Shown one piece after another: positions 1 through 7,452 of a stretch of 32,000 nucleotides of DNA. Under the pieces are notes generated by a model that saw nothing but the letters and a program-made list of their open reading frames with translations, was not told the DNA's origin and ran no database searches. This DNA is from Acidothermus cellulolyticus 11B (GTDB lineage Bacteria; Actinomycetota; Actinomycetes; Acidothermales; Acidothermaceae): the NCBI RefSeq assembly GCF_000015025.1, contig NC_008578.1:1470001-1502000 (forward strand). The letters are read 5' to 3'. How positions within the stretch are numbered: position 1 is the first letter of the stretch; each line of letters starts with the position of its first letter. The position numbers and the translations under genes are program-made.

Positions 1-119
1 GGGGCGAAACCCATCGCGCGGAGTCGTTGCGCGACCGCTGTTTCACTGTCGGCAGCCAGCGTGCCGGTGAGCAGTTTTCCGCTGCGGTCCCGAACGGAGT
101 ACTGGTAGGTCGCGGTCAT
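1..119 (-). CDS. pilC: Type IV pilus platform protein PilC/GspF family, first 39 codons only (gene continues beyond the left edge)
   Basis: Reverse complement of 1-119 starts at ATG (119-117) and reads MTATYQYSVRDRSGKLLTGTLAADSETAVAQRLRAMGFAP. This is the typical Y-x-Y-x-x-R-D-x-x-G-K...G N-terminus of PilC/GspF. It starts 13 nt after the pilT stop. It is absent from the ORF track because it is truncated. Confidence 0.6.
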   Translation of the reverse strand, partial: MTATYQYSVRDRSGKLLTGTLAADSETAVAQRLRAMGFA

Positions 120-132
120 CGTGTCGTCCTAC

Positions 133-1800
133 TCATGCTCGGCCGACGAGTCGGTTGAAGTCTTCGACGTGGTGGCACTTCTCCAACCCCGTCTCGTAGG
201 TAATCTTGCCGGATTTCACCAGCTCAGCGAGGCTCTGGTCCATCGTGTGCATGCCGTATTTCGCTCCGGCCTGCAGTGCGGAGTAAATCTGATGCGTCTT
301 CCCTTCCCGGATGAGGTTCCGGATCGCAGGCGTTGCGACCAGCACTTCCGTCGCCACCACGCGCGCCCGGCCGTCCGCCGTTTTGCAGAGCGTCTGAGCG
401 ACGATGCCCTGGAGCGATCCGGCTAGCTGCACCCGGATTTGCTGCTGCTGATGGGGTGGGAAGACGTCGATGATGCGGTCGATGGTCTGTGCGGCGTCCT
501 GGGTGTGCAAGGTCGCGAGCACCAGGTGTCCGGTTTCCGCCGCTGTCAAGGCAACCGAGATGGTCTCGAGGTCCCGCATCTCACCGACCAGGATGATGTC
601 TGGGTCTTGCCGCAGCACGTGTTTGAGGGCATTGGCGAAGGAATGCGTGTCATCGCCGACTTCCCGCTGGTTGACCAGACACGACTTGTGGGTGTGCAGG
701 AACTCGATGGGATCCTCGACCGTCATGATGTGGTCGCGGCGCTGCCGGTTCGCGATGTCGATGATGCCGGCGAGCGTCGTCGACTTTCCGGACCCGGTCG
801 GCCCGGTGACGAGGACAAAACCGCGCGGCAGCATCGCGAAATTTGCGACGGCGGGCGGAATTCCCAAGTCCTCCAACTTTTTTATTTCGAAGGGAATGAG
901 GCGGAACGCGGCGCCAAGTGCCTCACGCTGCCGGTACAGGTTGACCCGGAACCGCGCACGGCCGGGCACAGCGTACGCGAAGTCAAGTTCCAGCTCCTCT
1001 TCGAAGCGCTCCCGCTGTTTCTGGGTGAGAATCTCGTACATCATCTGGTGGATGACCGGCGGCGTCAGCACCGGCAAATCCTCCATCGGCACCAGACTGC
1101 CGTTGATGCGGAGCGTTGGCCGGGCCCCTGCGGTCAGGTGCAGGTCGGAGGCGTTGTGCTCGAGCACCCGGATCAGCATGTCGGTGAGGCTGACGCCCTC
1201 GAGCAGGCGCGGTTGGTCCATTCCGGTGCCCACCGTCGGGAAAGCCTCGCCCTGCGACGGCTGAATGCCGATCCCACTCGACGTCCCGACCACTCCCCCG
1301 TCAGCGGGCGGAGCGAGGGGTTGCAGCGCCGGTGCCGGAGACGAAGGGCTCGCAACTCCACGCGGCGGAGGAGTCGGCGCGGTCGGCGCCGGTGTAGGCG
1401 CCGGCGATGCGGCAAGCCCGGTGAACGGCGAGACGCCATTCCCGGCCACCGAGCTGCCGGACGCTGGGACACCGGATGGCGCACCCGTTCCCGGCGAGGG
1501 TGGAGGCGCGACGACCGACGGCAGCGGACCGAAGAGTGGATCGAAATCAGCGTTCGGCGCGTTCTGCGGCGATCCGCCCGCGGCGCCGGCCGGCGCAGGC
1601 ACCTGCGCCGTCCCGGACGGCGCGCGGTCGGCGTCCGGATTAGCAAAGAAACCGTACGGCTCCACGCAGCTACCCCTTTCGGCGCAGATTTGCCCGTCGG
1701 CGACGAGCAGTCTCCTGCAGGCATCGGACACCAGGCGGCTTCCCTTGAGCTCCGCCAACCGGGCGCCGCCGGCGCAGACCCGGCCCGCCGCGTTGTCCAC
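133..1800 (-). CDS. pilT: PilT-type twitching-motility (pilus retraction) ATPase with a ~190-aa N-terminal extension
   Basis: 555-aa ORF. The C-terminal ~355 aa carry Walker A GPTGSGKSTT, Walker B DPDIILVGEMRD, His box TGHLVLATLHT and the PilT/PilU signature AIRNLIREGK. The N-terminus has a 4-Cys segment followed by a P/A/S/G-rich linker. GTG at 1800 leaves 53 nt to the pilB stop. An internal ATG at 1221 would give a canonical-length PilT, so the start is uncertain. Confidence 0.88.
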   Translation of the reverse strand: MDNAAGRVCAGGARLAELKGSRLVSDACRRLLVADGQICAERGSCVEPYGFFANPDADRAPSGTAQVPAPAGAAGGSPQNAPNADFDPLFGPLPSVVAPPPSPGTGAPSGVPASGSSVAGNGVSPFTGLAASPAPTPAPTAPTPPPRGVASPSSPAPALQPLAPPADGGVVGTSSGIGIQPSQGEAFPTVGTGMDQPRLLEGVSLTDMLIRVLEHNASDLHLTAGARPTLRINGSLVPMEDLPVLTPPVIHQMMYEILTQKQRERFEEELELDFAYAVPGRARFRVNLYRQREALGAAFRLIPFEIKKLEDLGIPPAVANFAMLPRGFVLVTGPTGSGKSTTLAGIIDIANRQRRDHIMTVEDPIEFLHTHKSCLVNQREVGDDTHSFANALKHVLRQDPDIILVGEMRDLETISVALTAAETGHLVLATLHTQDAAQTIDRIIDVFPPHQQQQIRVQLAGSLQGIVAQTLCKTADGRARVVATEVLVATPAIRNLIREGKTHQIYSALQAGAKYGMHTMDQSLAELVKSGKITYETGLEKCHHVEDFNRLVGRA

Positions 1801-1853
1801 CCGCCAACCGGACCGGCAGCCGCTCCGCCAACCGGGCGCAATGCCGGTGCACC

Positions 1854-3515
1854 TCAGACGACCACGCGGAAAATCTCTTCGAGAGTCGTGACCCCGGCTG
1901 CGACTTTGCGCAGTCCGTCCTCGCGGAGGGTGACCATGCCCTGCTCACGGGCCACCCGGCCGATCGCCTCCGCGGAGGCCCGCTCCACGGCGAGTCGTTC
2001 GATCTCCTCAGTGACGGTCATGACCTCGTGCAGCGCAATCCGCCCCTTGTACCCCGTCTTCGCGCACGCCGCACAACCGACCGCCCGGTACAACGTGGGG
2101 AGCGGCTCGCCGTCCCGCCACGGGAATTTCGCCTCCCGCAGACTCTGCGGCGTCGGCATGTACGGTTCCTTGCATTTCTCGCAGAGCCGCCGGGCCAGTC
2201 GTTGCGCGAGAACACAGTCCAGGGCCGAGCCGACGAGGAACGGTTCAATCCCCATTTCGATAAGCCGGTTCACCGCGCTCGGCGCATCGTTGGTGTGCAG
2301 CGTCGACAGAACGAGGTGACCGGTCAATGCCGCCTCGATCGCGATCTGCGCCGTTTCGTGGTCCCGGATTTCGCCGATCAGCACGATGTCCGGGTCGGCG
2401 CGGAGAATCGTCCGCAGCGCCGACGCGAAGGTGAGACCCGCCTTGACGTTCGTTTGGATCTGGTTGATGCCTGGGAGCCGGTACTCCACCGGGTCTTCGA
2501 CCGTGATGACGTTCTTCTCCACCGACGAAATAATGTTGATCGTCGCATAAAGGGTTGTCGACTTCCCCGATCCGGTGGGCCCGGTGACGAGAATCATCCC
2601 GTACGGCTTAGTAAAACTCGCCGAATAGCGGGCGTAATTGTCTTCGGCGAACCCGAGGTCGCTGAGGGTCAGAAGCGCGGTCGAGGTGTCCAGAATCCGC
2701 ATGACAACTTTCTCGCCCCACACCGTCGGCAGCGAAGCGACCCGCAGGTCCACCTTCTTGCCGTTGACAGTCACCGACATGCGGCCGTCCTGCGGCACCC
2801 GGCGTTCCGCAATATTCATGTCCGCCATAATTTTCAGCCGGCTGATGACGCCGGACTGAATATTCCGCGGTGACCGCATCACCTCGTGCAGCACGCCGTC
2901 GATCCGGAACCGGACCCGCAAATCCCGCTCGGTCGGCTCGATGTGAATGTCCGACGCCCGGTCTTGCACCGCCTGGGTGATCAGCAGGTTGACGAATTTC
3001 ACGATGGGCGCGTCCTCGACCACCTCGTCGAGGCTTGCCAGGTCTTCGGTCTCCTCAGCCGCCAGCGTGCTCGTCAGGTCGTCGAGTTCCTCGTCGGCGC
3101 GGTGGTACCGGTTGATGGCGGCCAACACGTCGGCCCGGGTCGCGACGACCGGCTTGACGTCCAGGCCGGTGATCGACCGGATGTCGTCGATGGCAAAGAC
3201 GTTCGCCGGGTCGGCCATCGCGACGACGAGCTTGCCGTCTTCGTAACCGATCGGGAGCGCCGTGTACCGCCGGCAGACCGCCTCTGGCACCCGGGACACC
3301 GCCGAGCCGTCAATAGCGACGTCGGTCAGGTCGACGAACCGCAGGCCGATCTGGGTCGCCAAGGCGGCGACCAGCTGGGCTTCGGTCAGAATGCCTTGGT
3401 CGACGAGGACGCGACCGAGGCTGCGGCCGTTGCGTTGATGCTCGGCGTACGCGGCGGCGAGCTGTTCGGGGGTGACCAGGCCGCCTTCCAGAAGGATGTC
3501 GCCGAGTTGCTTCAT
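1854..3515 (-). CDS. pilB: PilB/GspE-type type IV pilus assembly (extension) ATPase
   Basis: N-terminal T2SSE_N/MshEN-like helical repeats, Walker A GPTGSGKSTT, Walker B DPDIVLIGEIRD, His box TGHLVLSTLHT, and tetra-Cys CEKC...CAAC. The ORF track begins at GTG 3521. I prefer ATG 3515 because the purine-rich GGGGGGA (complement of 3524-3530) lies 8 nt upstream of it. Confidence 0.92.
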   Translation of the reverse strand: MKQLGDILLEGGLVTPEQLAAAYAEHQRNGRSLGRVLVDQGILTEAQLVAALATQIGLRFVDLTDVAIDGSAVSRVPEAVCRRYTALPIGYEDGKLVVAMADPANVFAIDDIRSITGLDVKPVVATRADVLAAINRYHRADEELDDLTSTLAAEETEDLASLDEVVEDAPIVKFVNLLITQAVQDRASDIHIEPTERDLRVRFRIDGVLHEVMRSPRNIQSGVISRLKIMADMNIAERRVPQDGRMSVTVNGKKVDLRVASLPTVWGEKVVMRILDTSTALLTLSDLGFAEDNYARYSASFTKPYGMILVTGPTGSGKSTTLYATINIISSVEKNVITVEDPVEYRLPGINQIQTNVKAGLTFASALRTILRADPDIVLIGEIRDHETAQIAIEAALTGHLVLSTLHTNDAPSAVNRLIEMGIEPFLVGSALDCVLAQRLARRLCEKCKEPYMPTPQSLREAKFPWRDGEPLPTLYRAVGCAACAKTGYKGRIALHEVMTVTEEIERLAVERASAEAIGRVAREQGMVTLREDGLRKVAAGVTTLEEIFRVVV

Positions 3516-3622
3516 CGTCACATCCCCCCATCGGCCGGAAGGCCGTCTCCGCTACCGGAATGCGCTCCAGGCCACCGAGGTTCCACCGCTGACCCCAGCC
3601 GCACCGATCTCCTGCCGCCGGC

Positions 3623-4204
3623 TCAGGCCTGCGCCGCCGCGACGTCATCCAGCGAATCGACGACCGCATACAACAAGGCGAGAAGCACGTTCTTCACCGA
3701 CTCCCGATCGAGCGCATTACACGGCACGACCGGGGTCCGCTCATCGACGTCGAGGACATCCCGCACCCGGGCCGCCGTCTCCGGCTCCACCACGTCCGCG
3801 CGATTGAGCGCCACGACGAACGGAACGTTCGCCATCGCCCGGAAGGCGCGCAGGATTCCAACCGCTTCGTGCAAGGATTCGTCGCGTTCGGCGTCCACGA
3901 GCAGCACGTAACCGAGCATCCCCTCGCCGAGGATCTCCCACATGAAGTCGAACCGCTCTTGACCCGGCGTCCCGAAAAGGTAGAGCACAAGATCGTGATC
4001 GATCGTGATGCGCCCGAAGTCCATCGCGACGGTCGTTTCGTGCTTGCGGGCTCGGGTCTCGTCGGTGATCTCTTTCTCGGTGGAGAGAACCGTGATCTCA
4101 CTGATCGTACGGATCAGTGTCGTCTTGCCAGCCGCGAAGGGACCGGTAATTACGATCTTCACTGCCTGGGCGCTGCCGCCCCGGCGTCCGCGTTTGATCG
4201 TCAC
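3623..4204 (-). CDS. Small P-loop GTPase of the MglA/CvnD (conservon ATP/GTP-binding protein) type
   Basis: 193 aa. G1 is GPFAAGKTT, switch-I-like is ETTVAMDFG, G3 is LFGTPGQERF (Thr replaces the Ras Asp, as in MglA-like proteins), G4-like is LNRAD, and G5-like is PCNA. GTG start at 4204 is preceded by GGGAGGGG. It lies 31 nt downstream of the DUF4388 gene. Confidence 0.82.
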   Translation of the reverse strand: MTIKRGRRGGSAQAVKIVITGPFAAGKTTLIRTISEITVLSTEKEITDETRARKHETTVAMDFGRITIDHDLVLYLFGTPGQERFDFMWEILGEGMLGYVLLVDAERDESLHEAVGILRAFRAMANVPFVVALNRADVVEPETAARVRDVLDVDERTPVVPCNALDRESVKNVLLALLYAVVDSLDDVAAAQA

Positions 4205-4235
4205 GTGCCCCTCCCGACGAGTAGCGGCCAGCTCA

Positions 4236-5522
4236 TTACAGCCCCCTCACCCCGGCGATCAGCCGAAGCAGCAGGCTCTTGTTGACGCTCGGGTCGCGCT
4301 CGATACGCGGTCGCGGCTCGGACGCCGGCGAGGCGAGCGCAGCAGCCGTGCCGACAACGCGCGGCTCCGGCGGCTCCTCGGGGTAGGCAGGCCGGCGCGG
4401 CGGCAGGAACGGTTCCGGGCGGGGCGGCACGACCGGCTGCCGGGTGTCCGGGATGAGCCGCGGGCCGGCGTCCGGTTTGGCGGCGGCAAGCACCGACGCA
4501 ACCGTCGACGCGGCCGGCAGATCGGCGCTCTCGGGGTCGAACGCGAGCGCCGGATCCACGGCAGGTTCGCGCGCCGAGGCGGCTGTGCCCACGGCCGCGG
4601 CGGCCGGGCTGGCGGCGGCCGTGCCCCCGGGACTCGACGGGGTCGACGCTCGATCCGAGTCACCGCCGGTCTCCGGCTCGGCGGGTGCGGTCCGCTGCTC
4701 CGAGATCCGCGCGGACTCCGCCACGCCAGCCGAACCGCCGGCACCTCGATCCGCCGATGCGCCGCCGTCCAACCGGGACAACAGCTCGTGACGCCGGATG
4801 AGTCCGTCGACACCGCCGTCATCCTCGCCGCCGCGAACGATCAGCAACCGCCGTTCCACCAAACCCGCCAGGGTGGACACGACGGCGAAATCCCCCCGGC
4901 CGGCAAGCTGCACCAGCTCGGCAACGCTGCGCCGGCCGTCAACTAGCGCCAGCAGCGCCCACTCGGCCCGGGAGAGCCGGGGCTCCTCCCCGATGCAGAC
5001 CGGGACGGCAAGGACCGTCTGCGGCGATGGGATGATCCGGCACGCCCGTTCCCAGACATCCAACCGGCTTCGCGCCTCGGCGATCACCTCGTCCGTCGCG
5101 AGCCGGACCCCGACGTCGTCGGGCGAAACCTCGTCCAGGCCGAACGAGAACTCTCCATCCGGCCAGCGAAGAAAGTCAAAGACAGCGTCCACAGCCTGAT
5201 CCGTCACGACGCTGCGCAGCAAGGCGTCGTCGACCGCACCGGCGTCGAGCAGCGCACGGCCAACCCCGACGCCCTCACTCCTGGCACGTTCGACCGCCTG
5301 CTCGAGAACGCCGATCGGGACCTCAGCCGCCCCGATCAGCCGCCGGGCCAGCGATTGACGGCCGTTGTCGGCGAGTGCGCCCGTGATGGCGCCCTCCGCG
5401 AAGTAGACGCACCCGTGCTGGTTGCCACGGCGCAGGTGCAACCCGCCGGACTTCTTCGTGAAGCTGAGCAGCTGGAAGATGTCCGGAAGGCTGAAGGCGT
5501 CGAGCGAACCTTCGAGTTTCAC
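4236..5522 (-). CDS. DUF4388 (PATAN) domain protein with central winged-helix-like segment, long disordered P/A/S region and a short hydrophobic C-terminal peptide
   Basis: 428 aa. The N-terminus MKLEGSLDAFSLPDIFQLLSFTKKSGGLHLRRGNQHGCVYFAEGAI matches the L-x-G-x-L-x-x-F-x-L-x-D-(I/L)-x-Q-L...G-x-L...G-x-(I/V)-x-F-x-x-G signature of DUF4388. Residues ~182-229 (LSRAEWALLALVDGRRSVAELVQLAGRGDFAVVSTLAGLVERRLLIV) look like a wHTH. Stop is TAA at 4236. Confidence 0.8.
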   Translation of the reverse strand: MKLEGSLDAFSLPDIFQLLSFTKKSGGLHLRRGNQHGCVYFAEGAITGALADNGRQSLARRLIGAAEVPIGVLEQAVERARSEGVGVGRALLDAGAVDDALLRSVVTDQAVDAVFDFLRWPDGEFSFGLDEVSPDDVGVRLATDEVIAEARSRLDVWERACRIIPSPQTVLAVPVCIGEEPRLSRAEWALLALVDGRRSVAELVQLAGRGDFAVVSTLAGLVERRLLIVRGGEDDGGVDGLIRRHELLSRLDGGASADRGAGGSAGVAESARISEQRTAPAEPETGGDSDRASTPSSPGGTAAASPAAAAVGTAASAREPAVDPALAFDPESADLPAASTVASVLAAAKPDAGPRLIPDTRQPVVPPRPEPFLPPRRPAYPEEPPEPRVVGTAAALASPASEPRPRIERDPSVNKSLLLRLIAGVRGL

Positions 5523-5619
5523 GGTCGTCCTGTCCGGGATCGGGCGGGTGGGCTATCGGGGTCGCGGGCAACGAGCACGAGGCTCGGGATGGCATGCGGT
5601 CAATGCGATCACGACGCGG

Positions 5620-6312
5620 TCAGCCCCATCCCGGACGATCAGGAAGGACGCTGCCCGACGGGGTGTACGACGACCACGGTGCGGGTTCTGGTTCGGCCGG
5701 CTGTTCGGTGGGGGCGGCAGCCGCCGAGGGTTCACCGGTGGCGGCGGCGTACGCCGTCTGGTACGGCTCCCCGGAAACCGTCGGAAAGCCTCCCGGCGGG
5801 CCGGCGGACGGTGTCGGCGGCGGGGAGCCGGCGGGCACCGTGACGCCGTACTCGCGCATCGTGTAATCCGCAAGGGTTTCGCGGATCGTCTCAACCGGCG
5901 GTGCCGGCGGCGGAGCGGGCGTCCGTAGCACGTCGGCGACCTGGCTGGCGGCGAGCCGGATCTCGTACAGCATCATGCCGACCTTCGCCCCCGCCGACGT
6001 GACAGCGACCAGCACCCCCTCGTCCTGCGCCGCCACCAGAAACACGGTGCCGTTCTCCCCCTCGATGTACACCTGGGAGAGGGCGCCTCGGCCCAAGCCC
6101 TGAGTCGCGCGTTCCGCGAGCGACAACAACGCGGCGCTCATGGCCGCGACCCGGTCCTCGTCCATGTCCGCAGGGAGTGCCGATGCCATCGGCAGCCCAT
6201 CGAACGAGACGACCGCTGCGGCCTCGATCCCCGGCGTCTGGCGGAGGAGGTCGTTGAGGATGCGGTCGAGACGGCTGGCCCGGCTGGTGGGATCAACGGG
6301 GACGGCGGACAT
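5620..6312 (-). CDS. Roadblock/LC7 (MglB/CvnB-like) domain protein with ~100-aa Pro-rich C-terminal tail
   Basis: The track ORF 5620-7140 is over-extended. The internal ATG at 6312 is preceded by GGAAAGAGGG. MSAVPVDPTSRASRLDRILNDLLRQTPGIEAAAVVSFDGLPMASAL...GTVFLVAAQDEGVLVAVTSAGAKVGMMLYEI is a typical Roadblock/LC7 fold sequence. The upstream part of the ORF is Arg/Asp/Gly-rich junk lying antisense to the membrane-protein gene. Confidence 0.8.
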   Translation of the reverse strand: MSAVPVDPTSRASRLDRILNDLLRQTPGIEAAAVVSFDGLPMASALPADMDEDRVAAMSAALLSLAERATQGLGRGALSQVYIEGENGTVFLVAAQDEGVLVAVTSAGAKVGMMLYEIRLAASQVADVLRTPAPPPAPPVETIRETLADYTMREYGVTVPAGSPPPTPSAGPPGGFPTVSGEPYQTAYAAATGEPSAAAAPTEQPAEPEPAPWSSYTPSGSVLPDRPGWG

Positions 6313-6450: not shown

Positions 6451-7452
6451 GTGGCGCAGCCGGGCACAATATCCGCTATGCGTCAACTGATCAATTCGCC
6501 TCGGGTCATGCTCATGCTCGCCGCAGCGGCGGCCGTCGGTGCACTGGCCGCCGTCCTTGCCGGTTTGTCGTTCGCCCTCGCCTCGGTCTTCGACACCGGC
6601 GCGGCCCACGACCTCCGGGTCGGCGCCGCATGGATCGGCTTCGCCGCGTGGTTGATCGCCATCGTCGCGGTGGCACGCCTCGGCTGGCAGCTGATCTTGG
6701 AGTCCCGCTGGACGCCGGTGGCCGAGATCGGCGGGGTCGTGATCTCCGTTCTTCTGATCACGATCGGCGCGTTGGTTGACGCCCTCGATGTGACCGGACG
6801 TCGGGGCAGCGGCGGCGGGGTTCTCGCCGCCGTCGGTTTCGGGTTGCTTGGCCTGGCGGTGCTGGTTGTCGCCGCCCGCCAGTCGATCGCCGAGTTCCGG
6901 GAGAACGTCCAGCCGCACCGGCGGTCCGCTTACCTGTGGTCGTTCGGCGCCGGAGCGGCGATTCTGTACGCGATCGCGGTGGGGTTGACGGACACACCGC
7001 TCGGATTGGCTGGAACCACGGACGTCACGCAGGGCGACCTCATCGCGTCCGGCGTGCTCGCCCTGCTCTGCTGGGCCGTGCTCATTGCCGTCGCGGCCGG
7101 TGCGCTCCGGGTCGGCATCGCCCGGTTGGCGACCGTCCAAGGGCTTGTCGTTGCGCTGGGCATCCTCGTGCTGAGCGCGATCGCGCTGATCGTGGCTGCC
7201 GCGACCCAGATCCCGGTCTCCGCAGACCTCACCGGGTTCCGGGTCGCGTTCTCGCTCCCGGAATTCCTCCTCGCAGTTGGACTGCTCGTCCTGGCGTCGA
7301 TCTCAGCCGCGCGTGGGGACGCCTTCGGTGGTCTAGCCAGCCGGGTGCAGCCGGCTCCCCGCCCGGCGCCGGCACCGCCGGGCCCAACCACCCCGCCGGC
7401 GGCGGAGACGACACCGATGCCCGTCTCACCACCGGAACCACCGGGGGTCTGA
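6451..7452 (+). CDS. Hypothetical polytopic membrane protein (about 8 predicted TM helices) with Pro-rich C-terminal tail
   Basis: 333-aa ORF with eight hydrophobic 20-23-aa stretches and a PAPRPAPAPPGPTTPP tail. It is divergent from the Roadblock gene. GTG at 6451 or ATG at 6478 (MRQLINS...) are possible starts. I recognise no family. Confidence 0.55.
   Translation: MAQPGTISAMRQLINSPRVMLMLAAAAAVGALAAVLAGLSFALASVFDTGAAHDLRVGAAWIGFAAWLIAIVAVARLGWQLILESRWTPVAEIGGVVISVLLITIGALVDALDVTGRRGSGGGVLAAVGFGLLGLAVLVVAARQSIAEFRENVQPHRRSAYLWSFGAGAAILYAIAVGLTDTPLGLAGTTDVTQGDLIASGVLALLCWAVLIAVAAGALRVGIARLATVQGLVVALGILVLSAIALIVAAATQIPVSADLTGFRVAFSLPEFLLAVGLLVLASISAARGDAFGGLASRVQPAPRPAPAPPGPTTPPAAETTPMPVSPPEPPGV

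Follow-up and report, generated by a model that had tools for sequence, protein, structure and literature searches.

Whether a small-GTPase module that stands directly in front of the genes for a type IV pilus motor also acts on that motor is the question raised by one locus of Acidothermus cellulolyticus 11B, which lies in a 32,000-nt stretch of contig NC_008578.1 (positions 1,470,001 to 1,502,000; this whole stretch is called the window, and positions are window positions unless a relative's locus is named). At one end of the window, the listing of open reading frames (ORFs) contains six co-directional minus-strand ORFs, which encode a Roadblock protein, a PATAN/DUF4388 protein, a small GTPase, PilB, PilT and PilC and correspond to Acel_1325 (Roadblock) through Acel_1320 (PilC). 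From sequence comparison and by analogy with studied PATAN proteins, we consider it probable (roughly 0.6) that the GTPase module, which is of the MglA Group 5 type, acts on pilus extension through the PATAN protein as an adaptor. The features concerned are as follows.

5620–6312, minus strand: Roadblock/LC7 protein (MglB-like), Acel_1325, 230 amino acids (aa); Pfam Robl_LC7, E 2e-19
4236–5522, minus strand: PATAN/DUF4388 protein, putative adaptor, Acel_1324, 428 aa; Pfam DUF4388, E 1.7e-25
3623–4204, minus strand: MglA-family small GTPase, Group 5 type, Acel_1323, 193 aa; Pfam ATP_bind_1 and small-GTPase models, E 4e-21
1854–3521, minus strand: PilB, type IVa pilus extension ATPase; Pfam T2SSE, E 5e-142, and MshEN, E 1e-24
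133–1800, minus strand: PilT, retraction ATPase, with the ATPase core at 133–1221; pilT_fam, 491 bits over residues 205–544
1–119, minus strand: 5′ end of pilC (platform protein), the gene continuing beyond the window edge; identified from its translation
6451–7452, plus strand: divergent membrane-protein ORF with about eight hydrophobic segments; no Pfam or NCBIfam match

The six-gene block lies where the first-pass annotation, made from the window sequence alone, had placed it, and exact-sequence look-up identified the three regulators as ABK53097.1 (Acel_1325), ABK53096.1 (Acel_1324) and ABK53095.1 (Acel_1323). The gaps of 97, 31, 107, 53 and 13 nt reported there are an arithmetic consequence of the ORF coordinates as first annotated. 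Those coordinates stand except for the start of PilT, which is most likely at 1665 and would widen the pilB–pilT gap to 188 nt. Assignment of the three regulators to the Roadblock, PATAN/DUF4388 and small-GTPase families was upheld by Pfam and NCBIfam, the profile check matching the Robl_LC7, DUF4388 and small-GTPase models in turn. The membrane-protein gene described as diverging upstream of the block is the polytopic ORF at 6451–7452, for which a counterpart was detected in L001, the closest Acidothermus relative (50% identity), and in no other locus.

The main evidence for a functional tie is conserved gene order. A scan with an alignment of the PATAN protein, taking one genome per species, gave 158 relatives. 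Of the 80 loci retrieved, all except one are titled Acidothermaceae, Frankiales/Frankiaceae, Sporichthyaceae, Mycobacteriales or unclassified actinomycetes, and nearly all are metagenome-assembled. Searches with the window proteins (tblastn) gave mltG-aroE-Roadblock-PATAN-GTPase-pilB-pilT as the order in most loci; the trio was intact in all 58 related actinobacterial loci with enough flank, and pilB-pilT followed it within 3 kb downstream in 52 of the 63 informative loci. In 40 loci pilB began no more than 700 nt after the trio, including L001, where the matches abut, and the gap between the GTPase gene and pilB is just ~0–22 nt in the closest relatives (L001, L002, L004 and L006). A further 12 loci (L005, L047, L007, L009, L010, L013, L027, L038, L043, L045, L055 and L068) have pilB after an insert of 1.5–2.9 kb. 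Both inserts examined (L005 11380–12867 and L047 12040–13914) encode a polytopic Wzy_C O-antigen-ligase-family protein (E 1e-14 to 1e-15), and this protein between GTPase and pilB could be a pilin glycosylase. Such an arrangement goes far beyond what chance would give, as dozens of diverged genomes share this order of genes.

The association also reaches beyond this clade. Among the nearest GTPase relatives outside the clade, seven had informative contigs, and all seven have PATAN and/or Roadblock and/or pilus genes as neighbours. Three of the seven (GTPase identity 50–58%) are pilus loci, with gene orders as follows.

L090/L091: aroE-PilB-like-PatA_N-GTPase-PilB-PilT-PilC-pilin-PilD
L093: PATAN tail-GTPase-PilB
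L088: GTPase-pilin-pilin-DUF7305-PilB-PilB

L090 (5267–8528) belongs to a distant lineage of ~60% GC in which a second full-length PilB-like ATPase (MshEN plus T2SSE, 557 aa) replaces the Roadblock gene and sits in the same mltG...aroE position.

How such a module might reach the motor is suggested by work on Synechocystis, where the PATAN domain of PixE binds the N-terminal half of PilB1 and the N-domain of PilC and suffices to reverse phototaxis; the same study noted the frequent occurrence of MglA/MglB genes beside PATAN genes and left general PATAN control of pili as a question (bioRxiv 10.1101/2021.06.11.447907). MglB-type Roadblock dimers are GTPase-activating proteins (GAPs) for MglA in both Thermus and Myxococcus (PMC4316618). 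Taken with the synteny, the published PATAN–PilB/PilC binding makes a G-protein switch on pilus extension, operating via the PATAN protein, the most economical model, and the pilus-related output proposed in the first-pass annotation is plausible given the linkage in 52 of 63 loci and in three distant lineages. In this model, Acel_1323 would alternate between GTP and GDP states, and Acel_1325, presumably as a dimer, would set the rate of hydrolysis, like MglB for MglA. Acel_1324 would read the state of the GTPase and relay it to the motor by binding PilB at its N-terminal MshEN region, PilC at its cytoplasmic N-domain, or both, so that the outcome would be when or where pili are extended, while cyclic di-GMP (c-di-GMP) on the MshEN motif of PilB would provide a second, independent input. 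In Myxococcus, two PATAN proteins turned up near the pilus regulator SgmX and were left unstudied. Gene identities, motifs, domain architecture and conserved synteny are directly supported by our data; that the contacts and roles are the same in A. cellulolyticus (PATAN with PilB/PilC, an MglB-type GAP) we infer by analogy.

Identity of the GTPase is central to this model. Acel_1323 scores 45.4 bits against a TIGR00231 cut-off of 42.5, and its closest solved structures are those of MglA, at an E-value of just ~1e-4. A search of 1.84 billion representative proteins returned, as nearest relatives, GTPases of a short-insert, GPFxAGKT type, with conservon-type sequences only lower in the list. Alignment identified G1 GPFAAGKT, G2 ETTVAMDFG, G3 GTPGQ, G4 NRAD and G5 CNAL, with a G1–G3 spacing of 49. 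The MglA family has been divided into five groups, of which conservon CvnD proteins form Group 2, marked by G4 NxF(D) and G5 DAR; in Groups 2–5 a Thr replaces the Group 1 arginine finger and G3 reads GTPGQ, and G4 [NT]KxD is canonical in Groups 1, 4 and 5 (PMC4316618). Acel_1323 follows the Groups 2–5 pattern, having Thr in G2 (ETTV), no arginine finger and GTPGQ in G3, and is entered in Table S2 of that study as MglA Group 5 in the arrangement <MglA><PATAN><MglB> (PMC4316618, Wuichet & Søgaard-Andersen 2015). The three-gene combination is therefore not new, having been catalogued in 2015 without a function (PMC4316618 Table S2). G4 deviates, in that Acel_1323 has Arg (NRAD) where the Group 5 [NT]KxD has Lys; orthologues read NRAS, NRAE, NRSS, NRSQ or NRAA, such that the Asp is not conserved (NR[AS]x), and farther short-insert relatives mostly have NKQD.

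The first-pass annotation had instead seen here a kinase-less conservon with its CvnC slot refilled. Such a degenerate conservon (CvnA–D) would have lost its kinase, would carry the PATAN protein in place of CvnC and would work as in Streptomyces, with the pilus motor as output. The Roadblock protein does resemble CvnB5 and Rv3364c (E 1e-11 to 5e-13), and Acel_1323 is 35–46% identical to genuine plasmid-borne CvnDs, has TTVAMDFG and GTPGQERF in common with them and belongs to a set of orthologues that also share the CDA start of G5. Four genuine CvnDs, encoded on Streptomyces and Kitasatospora plasmids in operons annotated as kinase-Roadblock-DUF742-GTPase, nevertheless have the P-loop GGFGVGKT and a G1–G3 spacing of 57–60, and all the genuine conservons compared carry a kinase. 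Acel_1323 lacks the four CvnD signatures, with GPFAAGKT in place of GGFGVGKT, a G1–G2 segment ~8 residues shorter, NRAD in place of NxF and CNAL in place of DAR. Of the features that define a conservon, a CvnB-type Roadblock is present (Acel_1325, with Robl_LC7, CvnB5 and Rv3364c matches), and the adjacent CvnA kinase, the DUF742 middle gene and CvnD-type GTPase signatures are absent. Pfam found no kinase domain in the six proteins or the divergent ORF, the next genes being aroE and mltG, and neither DUF742 nor a histidine kinase occurs in any of the seven informative gene contexts found for the nearest GTPases outside the clade. The published tree places Acel_1323 in Group 5, A. cellulolyticus has just a single entry in the table of MglA-family GTPases, and the same trio is listed there for Aquificae, Chloroflexi, Cyanobacteria and Deinococcus-Thermus, four non-actinobacterial phyla without conservons (PMC4316618 and its Table S2).

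A neighbour-joining tree of 76 GTPases (100 bootstrap replicates) put the Acidothermus clade beside CvnD without support: monophyly of the clade was recovered in 53 of 100 replicates, grouping with CvnD in none, and no sister group was supported. On average, identity to CvnD-type sequences was 45.5%, compared with 44.7% for the others, and this tree does not resolve whether the clade is nearer to CvnD or to other Group 5 sequences. Judged by its motifs, its neighbours and the published classification, the locus was rejected as a conservon, and we regard the degenerate-conservon scenario as improbable. Two further contexts of related GTPases were observed. One close relative (L096 2–3149, L097) lies in a gyrA-GTPase-Roadblock string, which recalls the reported tie of the mycobacterial conservon GTPase MfpB to DNA gyrase. 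Plasmids of Deinococcus sp. D7000 (L082 1339–6646, L083 4267–6580) carry two modules of a hypothetical gene, a GTPase 41–44% identical to Acel_1323 and a Roadblock gene, the one on plasmid p_3 (L082) being surrounded by GGDEF, HD and HD-GYP genes. The protein encoded upstream of these plasmid GTPases starts like a PATAN domain by appearance, but its identification as a PATAN protein was not confirmed, Pfam giving no match and hhalign none of significance.

The proposed adaptor, Acel_1324, combines a PATAN domain with helical insertion (residues 4–158, nt 5049–5513), a winged helix (residues ~185–230, nt 4833–4970), a disordered linker of ~150 aa, which is variable, Pro/Ala-rich and carries the short motifs STVASVLAAA and RPEPFxPRRRPxFPE, and an invariant C-terminal helix, IERDPSVNKSLLLRLIAGVRGL (residues 407–428, nt 4239–4304). 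In family alignments of 15 and of 89 homologues alike, the PATAN domain at the N-terminus was invariant and residues ~185–230 formed a further conserved block. In the AlphaFold2 model, the predicted local distance difference test score exceeds 90 for residues 1–235, which form a small beta-sheet, a four-helix insertion (56–118), a long helix and the winged helix, in that order; residues 255–405 are disordered and 411–425 form a helix. Foldseek comparison of the model with the PDB gave no match at E ≤0.001, and its weak partial matches were to winged helices of GATOR1/SEA subunits (E 0.1–0.3, not significant) and an N-terminal fragment of PilB. Residues 30–59 of PilB cross-match the helical insertion of the DUF4388 model weakly (E 0.0076), in agreement with the published likeness of the PATAN insertion to PilB N-termini. 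A Response_reg match was not found in Acel_1324, the C-terminal half of which consists of the winged helix and the disordered region.

The winged helix bears on two alternatives. For the conservon scenario, it aligns with the winged helix of DUF742 (hhalign probability 87.5%, E 3.6e-6; the real score was 37.6, and none of 150 column-shuffled controls exceeded 17.7), with the match limited to this shared winged helix. Across the 89 family members, however, the middle domain matched MarR_2 in 35, HTH_27 in 14 and DUF742 in 3, and Acel_1324 itself had no DUF742 match even at E up to 10. The candidate identification of the middle domain as a specific CvnC/DUF742 homologue was dropped, the Pfam scans favouring generic MarR-type winged helices, and the likeness is, as far as these profiles go, one of common fold with no evidence of descent. 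The second alternative makes Acel_1324 a transcription factor under GTPase control, which would bind DNA through its MarR-like winged helix and regulate transcription of the pil operon without contacting the motor. Confident modelling of residues ~185–230 and the MarR_2 and HTH_27 matches would fit this, but the winged-helix Pfam matches are all weak (best E 2.7e-4, below the gathering threshold), and the putative recognition helix (GDFAVVSTLAGLVERRLL) appears, from its sequence, to be hydrophobic and acidic, not basic or polar. The weak structural neighbours, not significant in themselves, are winged helices of GTPase-regulating complexes and not DNA binders, and the PATAN proteins studied so far act through protein contacts at the membrane (bioRxiv 10.1101/2021.06.11.447907). 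A DNA-binding role is the least likely of the alternatives we weighed, and we give it very little weight.

The motif of the C-terminal helix closes the gene preceding the GTPase gene in all six distant relatives in which that end was available (motif genes include L088 3–224, L089 2–340, L090 7001–7984, L093 2–304 and L094 3–272), with the consensus (D/E)xx(V/I)(N/S/D)(K/R)(S/G)L(L/I)xR(L/F)IxG(V/I)(R/K)G(L/M), kept where the GTPase is only 50–58% identical, and the helix is probably a short docking peptide. As an amphipathic membrane anchor, it was neither supported nor excluded, its hydrophobic moment being indistinguishable from that of shuffled sequences.

The Roadblock protein, Acel_1325, has its core at residues 13–130, followed by a Pro/Ala-rich tail that ends in conserved Trp motifs (WSSYTPSGSVLP...GWG). 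Its closest solved structures are Roadblock proteins, Rv3364c (E 4.7e-13) and CvnB5 (3leq, E 1.2e-11); in the same structure-database search MglC scored merely 0.027, and MglB was not retrieved among solved structures. A literature source for the best Roadblock structure match, 7f8m, was not found. The Asp-Gly pair reported in MglB partners of Groups 2–5 (PMC4316618) is present in the Acel_1325 sequence FDGLP. Roadblock tails of the clade (window 5620–5715) are variable and Pro/Ala-rich, with W(S/P)SYxPxGSVLP and a terminal W(S/G/A), and these Trp motifs are retained also in loci without adjacent pilus genes.

By its domains, pilB-pilT-pilC is a type IVa pilus motor, comprising an MshEN extension ATPase, a PilT-family ATPase and a T2SSF platform protein. 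PilB, with a start at GTG 3521 or ATG 3515, scores 657 bits against NCBIfam type_IV_pilB, just below the equivalog cut-off of 675.65. It carries an MshEN-type c-di-GMP-binding motif at residues 5–57 (nt 3351–3509; NF053729, 63.3 bits against a cut-off of 38) in the form of a tandem, KQLGDILLEGGLV...Q and RSLGRVLVDQGIL...Q, and pilus extension is probably also under c-di-GMP control. For pilC, the 39 codons within the window translate as MTATYQYSVRDRSGKLL..., which matches the start of the 404–425 aa proteins found after pilT in L002, L005 and L090; in all three these are T2SSF proteins followed by N_methyl pilins.

PilT has two database starts, at 1800 (555 aa, RefSeq) and at 1221 (362 aa, GenBank). 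Orthologue comparison points to GTG 1665, which has a Shine-Dalgarno-like GAAAGGGG ahead of it and opens a conserved peptide, VE[TP]xG[FY], and both annotated starts are probably misplaced. PilT proteins of the clade have a Pro/Ala-rich N-terminal extension of ~150–250 aa (window 1219–1800), unusual for PilT, and in 35 of 37 orthologous loci the reading frame is open all the way from the core to the stop codon of pilB. Each of the three regulators, like PilT, contains long disordered stretches that carry short conserved motifs.

A more specific form of the Group 5 model can be drawn from these features, in which the trio is a self-contained G-protein switch docked on the pilus motor, with the PATAN protein as a GTPase effector that binds PilB/PilC and with docking by the C-terminal helix of the PATAN protein, the Trp motifs of the Roadblock protein and the N-terminal peptide of PilT, throughout the Acidothermus/Frankia-related monoderm clade and in some distant lineages. 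We put this version forward tentatively, as possible and clearly less secure than the general model.

Several observations weigh against control of the pilus by the trio. Linkage of the triad to pilBTC in relatives, which the first-pass annotation had made a test of its proposal, held in the 52 loci and three distant lineages described above and failed in the other 11 of the 63 informative loci, which have an intact trio and no pilB within 4–9.4 kb. Because of these 11 loci, the trio is not strictly tied to adjacent pilus genes, and the pilus link is recurrent but not obligatory. In the complete genome of Acidothermaceae bacterium B102 (L032, 11778–21176), the genes following the trio encode GT4, GT2 and Wzx-type flippase proteins by Pfam. 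The literature yielded no paper on the trio attached to pilBTC, no experimental description of the trio, as the first-pass annotation had already indicated, and no experiment on a Group 5 module in this or any other organism. Acel_1324 is without the receiver (REC) domain of the studied cyanobacterial regulators and its contacts may differ from theirs, and the guanine specificity of Acel_1323 is unproven because its G4 motif is degenerate in orthologues. That the trio and pilBTC form one operon is suggested by the gene string, co-transcription being putative, and the gaps of 101–107 nt (GTPase–pilB) and 188 nt (pilB–pilT) leave room for promoters. A generic scan predicted no terminator-like site between the six genes and gave nothing useful on promoters between them, the promoter prediction being ill-suited to high-GC actinobacteria. 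A WhiG/FliA-type promoter (TAAA...GCCGATAA) drives pilus genes in Rubrobacter and Actinoplanes (PMC8325347); at this locus the candidate was rejected, there being no full match and, in the relevant intergenic regions, no near-match.

These observations give room to a different explanation, that the trio is a general cell-polarity or envelope switch kept beside aroE, with the adjacency of pilBTC being positional at a site that hosts varied surface-structure islands. The trio is indeed anchored by aroE, which lies no more than 700 nt upstream in 52 loci and at most a few kb away in another 12, and part of the pilus linkage could reflect a shared insertion site for surface-structure genes beside aroE. 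The pil-less loci and L032 also fit, as do the Wzy_C-like gene between GTPase and pilB (seen in the two inserts examined, among 12 loci with an insert) and the relatives in which the GTPase gene occurs with a Roadblock gene only, or beside gyrA or c-di-GMP genes. Against a purely positional link, pilus adjacency recurs with different gene orders in separate distant lineages (L088, L090/L091 and L093), the GTPase gene and pilB are nearly contiguous in several close relatives, and PATAN contacts with PilB and PilC have been shown experimentally (bioRxiv 10.1101/2021.06.11.447907). The polysaccharide genes of pil-less loci are mostly on the opposite strand, which places them outside the trio operon; in L015, L050 and L075 they include GDP-fucose synthase and sugar transferase genes, judged by eye only. 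We consider the positional explanation unlikely, though it is the strongest of the alternatives, and retain control of pilus extension through the PATAN adaptor as the preferred reading.

The remainder of the window (7485–32000) resembles housekeeping genes, in agreement with the first-pass description of the pilus block as the only stretch of another kind. From ORF translations and tblastn synteny only, the genes there, on the minus strand, are aroE, mltG, alaS, a RarA-like ATPase gene, aspS, hisS, relA/spoT, apt, secDF, ruvC and a gene for a YebC-family protein.

The locus is no new kind of system. Makarova et al. are said to have been the first, in 2006, to note MglA/MglB/PATAN gene modules. 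The Group 5 modules catalogued since have the same three components, with G2 TT, G3 GTPGQ and no arginine finger, and the order MglB>PATAN>MglA of Acidothermus is also that of Aquificae and Roseiflexus (PMC4316618). The catalogue gives the three genes only and no function, whereas the Acidothermus trio runs straight into pilB-pilT-pilC, an arrangement kept through much of a large actinobacterial clade; the Acidothermus G4, NRAD (orthologues NR[AS]x), differs from the Group 5 [NT]KxD, and the Acidothermus PATAN protein adds the winged helix, the long disordered linker and the conserved C-terminal helix. What is new here is the conserved, operon-like pilus linkage and its recurrence in other lineages, the module type and the locus having already been catalogued.

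Among systems of known function, the Group 1 MglA/MglB pairs of Myxococcus xanthus and Thermus thermophilus likewise join a Ras-like GTPase to a Roadblock protein and are tied to placement of type IV pili, although Group 1 MglA is distant (E ~1e-4) and has an intrinsic arginine finger and TVPGQ where the Acidothermus GTPase has E-T-T and GTPGQ. The link to pili runs via SgmX, FrzS and SopA in Myxococcus, and mglBA is not beside pilB there. The cyanobacterial PATAN-REC regulators PixE, PixG and LsiR share the N-terminal PATAN domain with helical insertion and likely the same target, the PilB N-terminal half and the PilC N-domain, but the Acidothermus protein has neither a receiver domain nor any chemosensory or photoreceptor input, and GTPase and Roadblock genes flank its PATAN gene. 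Conservons likewise hold a Roadblock gene and an ATP_bind_1-type GTPase gene in one operon, with GTPases 35–46% identical and a middle gene encoding a winged helix; their neighbours are P450s or other typical genes, in contrast to the pilus genes of Acidothermus. More speculatively, a module of the Acidothermus type may be ancestral to the GTPase of conservons and to the winged helix of CvnC.

At least six phyla have Group 5 MglA GTPases encoded next to PATAN and Roadblock genes, and for no such GTPase has a function been established by experiment. The trio on pilB-pilT-pilC is the clearest genomic argument so far that Group 5 modules control type IV pili, and the locus names concrete protein pairs that make this question directly testable. 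If true, it would provide the first function for the widespread Group 5 MglA/PATAN modules and would extend G-protein control of pili from the diderms Myxococcus and Thermus to a monoderm thermophile.

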